Positions 14,889 to 18,163 of a stretch of DNA of 64,000 nucleotides are shown here, in pieces. The stretch lies in the sequence record NC_070869.1. One strand, 5' to 3'. The stretch's first letter is position 1. Each line of letters begins with the position of its first letter. A program made the translations under genes and the position numbers. The notes beneath the pieces were generated by a model. The model saw nothing but the letters and a program-made list of their open reading frames with translations, searched no databases and had not been told where the DNA came from. The DNA is from Escherichia phage vB_EcoP_SP5M.

Positions 14889-16853
14889 ATGCGTTACATC
14901 ACCTCTCAGGATACTGGCAAGTATCCTATTGCTATCCTCGGTCATCAAATCCGAAGGGAGGAGATGATTAAAACCTACCTGCTGCCTTATGACCTAAGCA
15001 TGGAAGATTTCATCTTCCTTGAACTACATTCTGCCCCTGGCAAGAAGAAAACTCCTGCAAGGGAGATTAAAGAGTTCATTCAGCAGGAACTACAGCAAGT
15101 ACTGGATGATGCGGAGACTCAGTACATTATCTGTACCGATTCTGACTACTTCAAAATACTGACTAAAGAAGCTAAAGCAGAAGCTAACCTCGGCTATGTT
15201 TGTGACTCAGTATGGGGTAAGCAGAAGGTTATTTATACGCCTAACTACAGACAGGTCTTTTATGATCCACCCGTAGTAAAAGCCAAAATTGCTCAGGGTA
15301 TGGATGCATTACTTAACCACATCCGTGGACAGTATGCTGAACCAGGTCAGGGAATCATTGAGTTTGAAGCCTATCCGGATACGCCCGAAAAGATTAAAGC
15401 CTGGTTAGACCAGTTGCTTGAGATGAATAAGCCTCTGGCTATAGACATCGAATCATTCGGTTTAAAGCACTATAACGCAGGTATAGGAACGATTACGTTC
15501 TGTTGGAGTAAGACACAAGGCATAGCTTTTAATGTGGACTACGAGCCAATTAAGGGGGCTACTGAAGCACCATATGGGCGTATTAACAGGAACGATGTTG
15601 TTCGTAACCTGTTACGTGAGTTCTTCATTAAGTACACTCAACGGCAGATGTATCACAACATTAGCTATGATGTTTATGTGCTTATCTATCAGTTATTCAT
15701 GGATAACCTGATTGATACGGAAGGCTTACTACATGGCGTGGAAATCATGCTACGTAACTGGGACTGTACTAAGTTAATCACCTATCTGGCTACTAACAGT
15801 TGTGCCGGTAATCACCTTAGTCTGAAAGACCAGGCTCAGGAGTATGCTGGTAACTATGCTCAGGATGATATTAAAGACATTCGTCTTATTCCTAATGAGC
15901 AACTGTTACGCTACAACCTCATTGATGGTTTGTGTACGTGGTACACCTACGAGAAGCACTGGGATACTCTCATTGCTGATGACCAACTGGATGTTTACAA
16001 CAACATCTTTAAACCAGCCTGTGAAGACATTATTCAGATGCAGTTAACCGGTATGCCCATGAATATGGAAACCGTTAACCAAGTAGCTGAAGAGATGGAA
16101 ACTGACAGGAACCAGGCTTTGAAAACTATTCGTGAGTCTAAGCTCATGAAGAACTTCACCCTGATGCTTCGTCAGGAATGGGTAGATGATAAGAATGCTA
16201 AGCTCAAGAAGAAACAAGTAACGCTTGCTGATTGTGATATTGAGTTTAATCCTAACTCCGGTCCACAGTTACAGAAGCTGTTATTTGATTATATTGGCTT
16301 ACCGGTTCTTGGTCTTACTAAGAGCAAGCAACCTGCTACTGACGGTGATACTATTAAAGCACTGCGTACACATACGCAGAGTGAAGATGTTAAGGAACTG
16401 CTCAATGCACTTATCGACTATAAACTCGTGGATAAGATTATCACTAGTTTTATACCAGCTTTCAGGAATGCCCAACCGGGACCGGATGGCTGGCACTACC
16501 TGTTCGGAAACCTCAATCTGGGAGGCACAGTCTCCGGTAGGCTATCGGCTTCAGAGCCAAATCTACAAACAATTCCATCCGGTTCTAAATATGCCAAGAA
16601 GATTAAGAAATGCTTCGAAGCCCCTCCTGGCTGGATATTTTGCGGTTTGGACTTCGCCTCGCTGGAAGACAGAATATCTGCACTGACTACCAAAGACCCA
16701 CAGAAGCTCAAAGTGTACATGGGGGTAATTGTGTATAGCGTTACTATCGATGGAGTTGACCATCATATCCGAGATGATGATACAATTGTTTATGATGGGA
16801 AAACATTTACCGGAGAGGAATTTTATAATGCCTATACCAATAGCCTACTTTGA
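14889..16853 (+). CDS. family A DNA polymerase, N-terminal fragment (3'-5' exonuclease + palm motif A)
   Basis: Exo I motif LAIDIESFG; motif A GLDFASLEDR near C-terminus; ORF ends about 45 codons after motif A in non-polymerase-like sequence, where the HNH gene begins. Confidence 0.75.
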   Translation: MRYITSQDTGKYPIAILGHQIRREEMIKTYLLPYDLSMEDFIFLELHSAPGKKKTPAREIKEFIQQELQQVLDDAETQYIICTDSDYFKILTKEAKAEANLGYVCDSVWGKQKVIYTPNYRQVFYDPPVVKAKIAQGMDALLNHIRGQYAEPGQGIIEFEAYPDTPEKIKAWLDQLLEMNKPLAIDIESFGLKHYNAGIGTITFCWSKTQGIAFNVDYEPIKGATEAPYGRINRNDVVRNLLREFFIKYTQRQMYHNISYDVYVLIYQLFMDNLIDTEGLLHGVEIMLRNWDCTKLITYLATNSCAGNHLSLKDQAQEYAGNYAQDDIKDIRLIPNEQLLRYNLIDGLCTWYTYEKHWDTLIADDQLDVYNNIFKPACEDIIQMQLTGMPMNMETVNQVAEEMETDRNQALKTIRESKLMKNFTLMLRQEWVDDKNAKLKKKQVTLADCDIEFNPNSGPQLQKLLFDYIGLPVLGLTKSKQPATDGDTIKALRTHTQSEDVKELLNALIDYKLVDKIITSFIPAFRNAQPGPDGWHYLFGNLNLGGTVSGRLSASEPNLQTIPSGSKYAKKIKKCFEAPPGWIFCGLDFASLEDRISALTTKDPQKLKVYMGVIVYSVTIDGVDHHIRDDDTIVYDGKTFTGEEFYNAYTNSLL

Positions 16854-17370
16854 GAACCGTTATCTAATTTCAGAGGATGGTTCCATCACCAATCTTGCTA
16901 GCAATTCCCCGCTTAAACCAACAGTAAATCCTAATGGGTATCTTAAGGTTGGTTTAGCGAAAGGGGATGGTACGCACCAACAGGAATTGGTTCATATTCT
17001 GGTAGCTAAACACTTTATTCCCAATCCATACGGATACAAGTATGTAAATCATCTGGATGGGAATAAACAGAATCCCCATAAGGATAATCTGAAATGGTGT
17101 ACAGCATCCCAAAATTCAGAACACGCCCTGCGAACAGGATTACGTCCTGGATATATGTCTGCAAATGACAAGGAGAAGTACCTATTTGAAGTACTGGAAG
17201 GTAAGCAAGTAGGTGAACTCGCCCAAGAAATAGGCAGACGTGCAGAAACACTGCATAAAATGCTCAGAACCACTGCTGACAGACTCGGTATCCGTCATAA
17301 GTGGGATGAGGTTATGAGGAGGAACCGCAGAGATGTCGCAATTCGACAACTTGCCAAAATCAACTCATGA
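16828..17370 (+). CDS. HNH homing endonuclease inserted in DNA polymerase gene
   Basis: ATG 16828 with GGAGAGGA RBS (track start 16729 is upstream in-frame); NUMOD4-like N-terminus (YFENRYLISEDGSITN) and HNH_3-like core (HLDGNKQNPHKDNLKWCT). Confidence 0.7.
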   Translation: MPIPIAYFENRYLISEDGSITNLASNSPLKPTVNPNGYLKVGLAKGDGTHQQELVHILVAKHFIPNPYGYKYVNHLDGNKQNPHKDNLKWCTASQNSEHALRTGLRPGYMSANDKEKYLFEVLEGKQVGELAQEIGRRAETLHKMLRTTADRLGIRHKWDEVMRRNRRDVAIRQLAKINS

Positions 17371-18163
17371 TTTCACTGGCAAAAAGATTCAATCTGTAAA
17401 AAAGGTAGGTAGTTCAACGGGTTATGATGGGCATAGTCTTCGTGCGTATGCTTACTTCGGTGAGCAAATGCCAGACATTGTAGACACAGTTGAATCAATT
17501 AACTCTATTCAGGTGAAGTACAAGCACTTGCGTAGTGATTCTAAAGCCCCAACCTTCTTGCTTACCTATGGTGGCACGTATATGGGCTTGATGAAAAACT
17601 GTGGCTTCTCGGAAGAGAAAGCTAAGACAACAGAGAAACGTTATCACGAACTCTATGTAGTTAGCGATATGTGGGTTCAGGCTAAACTAGACGAAGCTGC
17701 CAAGACTGGTTATGTAACTGCTGCATTTGGTTTGAGAGTGCGTACTCCTTTACTGGCTCAGGTATTACGTGGGACATGTAAGACTCCATATGAAGCAGAG
17801 GCTGAAGGTAGAACTGCTGGTAATGCCTTGGGGCAAAGCTGGTGTCTACTTAATAACCGTGCTGGCTCAGAATTTATGCGTAAGGTCAGAGCCAGTGAGT
17901 TCAGGTTAGATATACGTCCTAGTATTCACATTCATGATGCTCAGTACTTCATGATTCGTGACAACATGGATACTTTGCAGTACACGAACAAGCACTTGGT
18001 TGAAGCCGTTAACTGGCAGGACCATCCTGATATTGCTCATCCAGAAGTTGGTTTGGGTGGGGAACTATCATTGTTTTACCCAACGTGGGCTAACGAGATT
18101 GAGATTCCAAATCACGCTACCCCAGAAGAAGTTAATCAAATAATTCAAAAGGCATTCGCATGA
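17333..18163 (+). CDS. family A DNA polymerase, C-terminal fragment (motifs B and C)
   Basis: ATG 17333 preceded by GAGGAGG; DGHSLRAYAYFG aligns with Pol I D-x-H-x3-A-x3-FG; motif B-like RSDSKAPTFLLTYGG; motif C-like IHIHDAQY; frame differs from N-terminal fragment. Confidence 0.65.
   Translation: MSQFDNLPKSTHDFTGKKIQSVKKVGSSTGYDGHSLRAYAYFGEQMPDIVDTVESINSIQVKYKHLRSDSKAPTFLLTYGGTYMGLMKNCGFSEEKAKTTEKRYHELYVVSDMWVQAKLDEAAKTGYVTAAFGLRVRTPLLAQVLRGTCKTPYEAEAEGRTAGNALGQSWCLLNNRAGSEFMRKVRASEFRLDIRPSIHIHDAQYFMIRDNMDTLQYTNKHLVEAVNWQDHPDIAHPEVGLGGELSLFYPTWANEIEIPNHATPEEVNQIIQKAFA

Follow-up and report, generated by a model that had tools for sequence, protein, structure and literature searches.

A family A DNA polymerase gene of an N4-like phage, probably split into two polypeptides by a free-standing HNH endonuclease cassette

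Group I introns with an HNH ORF occur in the polymerase genes of SPO1-like and T7-like phages. The 'genes-in-pieces' ribonucleotide reductase of Aeh1 (nrdA-a/mobE/nrdA-b) was reportedly described by Friedrich et al. in 2007, and the split of T4 gene 39/mobA/gene 60 is said to have been described by Bonocora et al. in 2011. [quoted passage not shown] T4 mobA overlaps gene 39 by 23 bp (PMC2988022), and the structure of T4 topoisomerase II indicated that an insertion of ~70 aa has little effect on the activity of the fused enzyme (PMC11461880). In Aeromonas phages 25 and 44RR (Petrov et al.), the gp43A and gp43B fragments of a split family B polymerase co-purify and are active (PMC2988022).

We analyzed a window of 64,000 nucleotides from Escherichia phage vB_EcoP_SP5M (NC_070869.1), a Gamaleyavirus (G7C-like, N4-like) genome; the features of the split polymerase locus described below are all on the + strand. 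The polymerase of the window belongs to family A (Pol I-type, N4 gp39 type), has the DNA_pol_A domain and motifs A, B, and C, and shares 94–96% nucleotide identity with Gamaleyavirus polymerase genes. It is encoded in two pieces. The N-fragment ORF (14889..16853, 654 aa; Pfam DNA_pol_A, E 1.9e-23, residues 432-609) contains the 3'-5' exonuclease region, thumb/palm, and motif A (GLDFASLEDR), followed by an extra tail (N-tail) and a TGA stop; its C-terminal peptide is ...GEEFYNAYTNSLL. The C-fragment ORF (17333..18163, 276 aa; Pfam DNA_pol_A; PHROG 2573, E 2.7e-65) begins with MSQFDNLPK and contains another tail (C-tail), the DxH element DGHSLRAYAYFG, motif B in the O-helix (RSDSKAPTFLLTYGG), and motif C (IHIHDAQ). 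Profile positions 11-179 of PF00476 DNA_pol_A (length 381) were covered by the N-fragment and 201-303 by the C-fragment. These two ORFs and the HNH ORF between them are in three different frames, with stop codons between. The unsplit G7C enzyme has 859 aa; when the halves were concatenated, AF2 gave a Pol I-like fold, and the model matched Pol I structures with a probability of 1.00.

The N-fragment aligns collinearly with the polymerases of G7C and N4 as far as 16718, where its polymerase homology ends. Alignment to the unsplit G7C/N4 gene (2580 nt vs. 3275 nt) revealed an exact insertion of 695 nt (16719..17413) between the codons VY and TD, with ...KVY upstream and (S/T)xGYDGH downstream; the uninterrupted G7C/N4 sequence at this site is AAGGTGTATACCGATGGCTATGATGG. 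This mobile cassette, found at the same site in relatives, consists of the 44-codon N-tail with its stop, an HNH/NUMOD4 ORF, and a Shine-Dalgarno sequence with an ATG and the 27-codon C-tail.

The cassette was present in the window and in PD205, and absent from G7C, N4, and most Gamaleyaviruses (G7C and about 60 others). Some Enquatrovirus N4 isolates have it, but N4 itself does not. Copies at the same site were found in PD205 (99%), Enquatrovirus isolates (~76%), Pollock, Pylas, and IMG/VR contigs, and several cultured isolates carry it (AlfredRasser, Pollock, VEc25, and PD205). The split arrangement is already annotated in these four relatives. Between AlfredRasser and Pollock, the cassette is 90–95% identical vs. 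52–71% for its flanks; between the window and PD205, the values are 99–100% vs. 85–96%. These differences indicate that the cassette has spread horizontally, independently of the host genome. About 67–73 distinct C-fragment clusters with a C-tail occurred among the best 120 matches, and the split polymerase form is abundant in metagenomes.

The ORF in the middle of the cassette (16828..17370) codes for 180 aa, with NUMOD4, HNH_3, and a C-terminal helical region. In the Pfam search, HNH_3 matched with E 3.2e-6 (27.1 bits, cut-off 24.8) and NUMOD4 with E 1.1e-4 (22.8 bits, slightly below the cut-off of 23.4), and the ORF was assigned to PHROG 59 'HNH endonuclease' (E 2.2e-36). It is intact and evolving as protein in all lineages compared, and by its domains it is a free-standing HNH homing endonuclease gene with predicted activity and target. 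The mechanical ORF begins earlier, at TTG 16729. In the HNH frame the N-tail changes land on second codon positions, so this region is not part of the HNH ORF.

Each downstream ORF has its own translation signals. A Shine-Dalgarno-like sequence, GGAGAGGA (16812..16819), is located 8 nt 5' of the HNH ATG, and the first 26 nt of the HNH ORF still lie within the N-fragment ORF. The C-fragment start (ATG 17333) is preceded at 9 nt by GAGGAGG (17317..17323), formed by two rare AGG codons of the HNH ORF (AGG accounts for 5.2% of the Arg codons in the window's long ORFs), and an in-frame TGA is found 15 nt 5' of this ATG. An AGGAG-like motif 5' of the C-fragment start is retained in most lineages. 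The TGA stop and the C-fragment start, 29 codons ahead of GYDGH, were constant in 8/8 lineages, as was an HNH/C-fragment overlap of 38–47 nt, and 66 of the 67 metagenomic C-fragment clusters had M at the conserved start position. No + strand terminator was found within the split unit. These data suggest that the halves are independently translated.

The preliminary description of this DNA had reported the polymerase as two ORFs (14889-16853 and 17333-18163) with their motifs, the HNH ORF between them, and a C-fragment with its own ATG and a GAGGAGG Shine-Dalgarno in the 3' end of the HNH gene. The ORF list, the HNH start and end positions, the Pfam matches to HNH_3 and NUMOD4, and the positions of GAGGAGG and the ATG all agree with it, and the alignment to unsplit N4-like polymerases now defines the break as the 695-nt insertion. 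It had also considered ~130 nt and 30 nt flanking the HNH gene as non-ORF sequence, which does not hold: these flanks, of roughly 110 nt and 43 nt, are coding sequence for conserved tails of the two polymerase fragments.

Both tails are missing from the unsplit G7C and N4 polymerases. The N-tail (16719..16853; codon-position bias, AF2, and profile search) comprises 44 extra codons, MGVIVYSVTIDGVDHHIRDDDTIVYDGKTFTGEEFYNAYTNSLL, and the TGA, in frame with the N-fragment. The C-tail (17333..17413; family consensus and codon-position bias) comprises 27 extra codons, MSQFDNLPKSTHDFTGKKIQSVKKVGS, whose first 38 nt overlap the HNH ORF. N-tail differences at codon positions 1, 2, and 3 were 1, 3, 12; 2, 3, 17; and 7, 10, 18, a bias equal to that of the polymerase exons, and those in the C-tail were 4, 3, 9. 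This pattern indicates protein-level purifying selection on the tails in the polymerase frames. The N-tail was conserved over 36 clusters and the C-tail over 67, the latter with the family consensus M(S/Q)QF.TLK(R/K)ST.EIP.GAK..SIK(K/R)VG(N/R/K), followed by TDGYDGH. The N-tail is acidic (charge −6.3 in the window, mean −4.7 over 36 lineages) and the C-tail is basic (+2.6, with a wide spread among lineages from −4.5 to +6.5); opposite charges are fairly general across lineages. A profile search with the N-tail retrieved 52 proteins among 1.84e9 representatives, and in every strong match the tail was at the extreme C-terminus.

Alternatively, the 695-nt insertion could be a self-splicing intron with a catalytic core that overlaps the coding sequence, either a group I intron that has degenerated or a ribozyme not yet described; the polymerase would then be translated as a single chain from the spliced mRNA. 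Introns often carry the HNH genes found in phage polymerase genes. In the same gene family, PhAPEC5/7 have a true group I intron, located about 270 nt further upstream, the window itself holds another group I intron (22445-23199), and excising exactly 16719-17413 restores the reading frame. The AlfredRasser and Pylas annotations join the halves as if they were spliced, and the Pollock announcement terms the HNH 'intron-encoded', but none of them gives evidence. The 5' part of the insertion contains a hairpin predicted with RNAalifold within the N-tail coding region (16760..16798). Its arms, CCATCATA and TATGATGG, did not vary among 7 lineages, even at four synonymous sites, and showed no compensatory changes.

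The Rfam search of 16550-17550, however, gave no group I or group II intron even at E<=10, and at E<=1 no intron was found in seven other loci with this or a related site-2 insertion. The positive controls scored well: the PhAPEC5 polymerase insertion was recovered as a group I intron with 38 bits and an additional, separate match to P4-P6, and the window's own intron at 22445-23199 scored 58 bits. At the junctions there is neither a conserved U ahead of the 5' side (the exon ends with C in six lineages and with T in another) nor a conserved terminal G (the insertion ends with T, C, or A, depending on the lineage). RNA structure did not covary; the 5' flank had 0 compensatory pairs, and no base pairing was predicted for the 3' flank. 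The insertion begins with AUGGG, AUUGG, or ACAGG instead of the group II boundaries 5' GUGYG...AY 3', matches no Rfam group II family, and, with a 543-nt ORF inside its 695 nt, is too short for a group II intron. Only ~150 nt lie outside the HNH ORF, and they evolve as coding sequence in the polymerase frames; the stop, start, and RBS are conserved, and an intron does not need them. An intron is very improbable; splicing is ruled out only as far as known signals go, and Rfam would miss a new kind of ribozyme. The preliminary description had placed an intron at 22455-23250 in this genome, had seen no intron core near the HNH gene, and had favored two polypeptides over an intron, while allowing for an intron core that overlaps the ORFs. 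The Rfam results agree with the first two observations, and the third is strongly suggested by the missing intron signal, the selected tails, the stop and start positions, and the always-terminal N-tail.

Ligation of the fragments could also take place at the protein level if the tails were the halves of a very small or degenerate split intein around a free-standing endonuclease gene, acting by trans-splicing. The gene order (N-half + tail, endonuclease, tail + C-half) is that of the fractured genes (PMC2677866). The acidic N-tail and basic C-tail resemble split inteins, site-2 N-tails have a conserved Cys, and true inteins do exist in N4-like polymerases. The last C-tail residue is Asn in 33 of the 67 clusters, but R/Q/K/S in half of them, and the Thr or Ser that follows in 67/67 includes a +1 Thr that is merely the unsplit polymerase's own residue. 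The first N-tail residue varies (M/T/Q/V/S/E/L/A; M 20, T 6, Q 3, and others), so there is no conserved nucleophile. Together the tails have 71 aa, whereas the smallest HINT domains are about twice that size. No Pfam intein or Hint match was obtained at E<=10, there was no PDB sequence match, and the Foldseek matches were not inteins. We consider trans-splicing the least probable explanation, with hardly any weight.

AF2 modeled the N-tail alone with a pLDDT of 91.2 (76–91 in context) and predicts a small domain that folds autonomously, with four beta strands and one helix. The C-tail was modeled with low confidence (pLDDT 31–37), and AF2 with an unpaired alignment docked it onto neither the N-tail nor the polymerase body, which lends no support to a defined complex of the two tails. 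Comparison of the polymerase N-tails from site 1 and site 2 (hhalign probability 97.9%, E 3.9e-13) indicates that the domain recurs at a second polymerase site, and it is retained in L024, where the endonuclease gene is lost. The N-tail also aligned with T4-like gp39 tails (hhalign 86.7%, P 4.3e-6). HMMER alone did not reveal this link to T4 gp39, and the top Foldseek PDB match, T4 topoisomerase II 8yo3_C, was not significant (E 0.59). The N-tail and the tail of T4 gp39, the topoisomerase II half split off by mobA, are probably related. A tentative reading, to which we give somewhat less than even odds, is that the N-tail is a portable, previously undescribed mini-domain of ~40 aa that travels with homing-endonuclease genes as an 'antidote' to fragmentation: it would end the upstream fragment at two N4-like polymerase sites, persist without the endonuclease, and be homologous to the T4-type gp39 tail, part of the 'assembly bracket' of T4 topoisomerase II. 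If this is true, unrelated phage families and endonucleases share one non-lethal way to split essential enzymes, and this shared solution may derive from a decayed split intein.

Our preferred reading, with a probability of about 0.8, is a two-polypeptide polymerase of the 'genes-in-pieces' kind, split by an endonuclease gene and working as a non-covalent heterodimer without RNA or protein splicing. A free-standing HNH cassette would have been inserted between codons Y and T of the ...KVY/TDGYDGH... loop. In the N4-type family A polymerase, this loop separates motif A from motif B and is located where the fingers begin, at their base. The 44 in-frame codons of the cassette and their stop terminate the N-fragment, and the RBS and ATG of the endonuclease overlap its end by 26 nt. 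Within the 3' end of the endonuclease gene, another RBS and ATG would start translation through 27 codons into the remaining polymerase. As the cassette brings its own translation signals, one polycistronic mRNA would yield three proteins. The 654-aa fragment (exonuclease, thumb, palm with motif A) would pair with the 276-aa fragment, which contributes motif B in the fingers and motif C in the palm; the viable isolates and the selection acting on the two halves suggest that an active heterodimer is assembled. The acidic folded N-tail and the basic selected C-tail would help the halves to find or hold each other, most likely an assembly role as in Aeh1 NrdA-a/NrdA-b and as proposed for T4 gp39/gp60. 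When N4-like phages co-infect a cell, the endonuclease would spread the complete cassette with its tails to polymerase genes that are still uninterrupted.

The polymerase might also be made as two polypeptides whose tails have no assembly role. They would then be passenger sequence that serves the endonuclease, for instance by coupling translation, controlling expression, disrupting the target site, or providing recombination signals in the DNA, or they would decorate a surface loop neutrally. The equivalent T4 insertion is a 'pendant' outside the enzyme with little influence on the activity of the fused protein, and therefore a strict tail requirement is not established even in the model system; the Aeh1 heterodimer, too, forms without need of its tails. 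AF2 with the unpaired alignment gave no confident tail-tail or tail-body contact, the RBS and start of the HNH gene sit inside the N-tail coding sequence, and the invariant synonymous sites and hairpin there point to some constraint at the nucleic-acid level. On the other hand, the N-tail is constrained at the amino-acid level along its whole length and folds as a domain, which exceeds what translational coupling needs; the same domain is kept at the second site and in L024 without an endonuclease gene; and charge complementarity is fairly general. Passenger tails are unlikely, though less so than an intron or an intein.

A polymerase made of two polypeptides settles, as far as sequence analysis allows, the conflict among 'intron', 'joined CDS', and 'two polymerase genes' in the annotation of N4-like genomes. 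Such split genes should not be taken as pseudogenes, nor their exons joined in phylogenies or annotation. If the tail is an assembly module common to T4 topoisomerase II, it would represent a general way for selfish endonucleases to render their insertions harmless. Once confirmed in this role, it would provide a natural split-protein reassembly tag for engineering and a marker to find further split genes.

Compared with Aeh1 nrdA-a/mobE/nrdA-b (Crona et al. 2011, PMC3045599), this locus likewise has an HNH gene inside an essential replication-related gene, two halves that would be independently translated, an endonuclease that overlaps the downstream half, and apparently no RNA or protein splicing. 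In contrast to NrdA, the host gene is a family A polymerase, the tail charges are reversed (the N-tail is acidic here), and the tails form a conserved family in many lineages and at two sites. As in T4 gene 39/mobA/gene 60, the gene of an essential enzyme is split by an HNH gene, the upstream C-terminal and downstream N-terminal tails add up to an insertion of ~70 aa (44 + 27 aa here), and the endonuclease start overlaps the upstream ORF by about 23–26 nt; homology between the N-tail and the T4 gp39 tail is probable. Differences from T4 are the lack of a translational bypass element, C-tails without recognizable similarity, and an endonuclease for which no relationship to the T4 mobA region could be detected.

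In the gp43A/gp43B system, too, two genes encode a phage replicative polymerase, and in one case a homing-endonuclease gene separates them, but the polymerase is of family B with a seg-type (GIY-YIG) endonuclease, another break point, and no conserved tail domain described. The group I intron of PhAPEC5/PhAPEC7, from the same genus, shares an HNH gene near the family A active-site motifs that is polymorphic among close relatives; it has a recognizable ribozyme core, whereas this insertion has none and its flanks are coding. The 'fractured genes' (Dassa et al. 2009, PMC2677866) have the same gene order and phage replication enzymes as hosts, but the tails here do not reach the length of inteins and have neither their catalytic residues nor their motifs. 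In the genes-in-pieces pattern seen at this locus, a gene that is contiguous in relatives is replaced by two ORFs that flank an endonuclease gene and have a stop, an RBS, and a start of their own. It is a new example of an already known kind of split phage gene, and with it a family A replicative polymerase, broken between motifs A and B, joins the short list of endonuclease-split essential phage enzymes.

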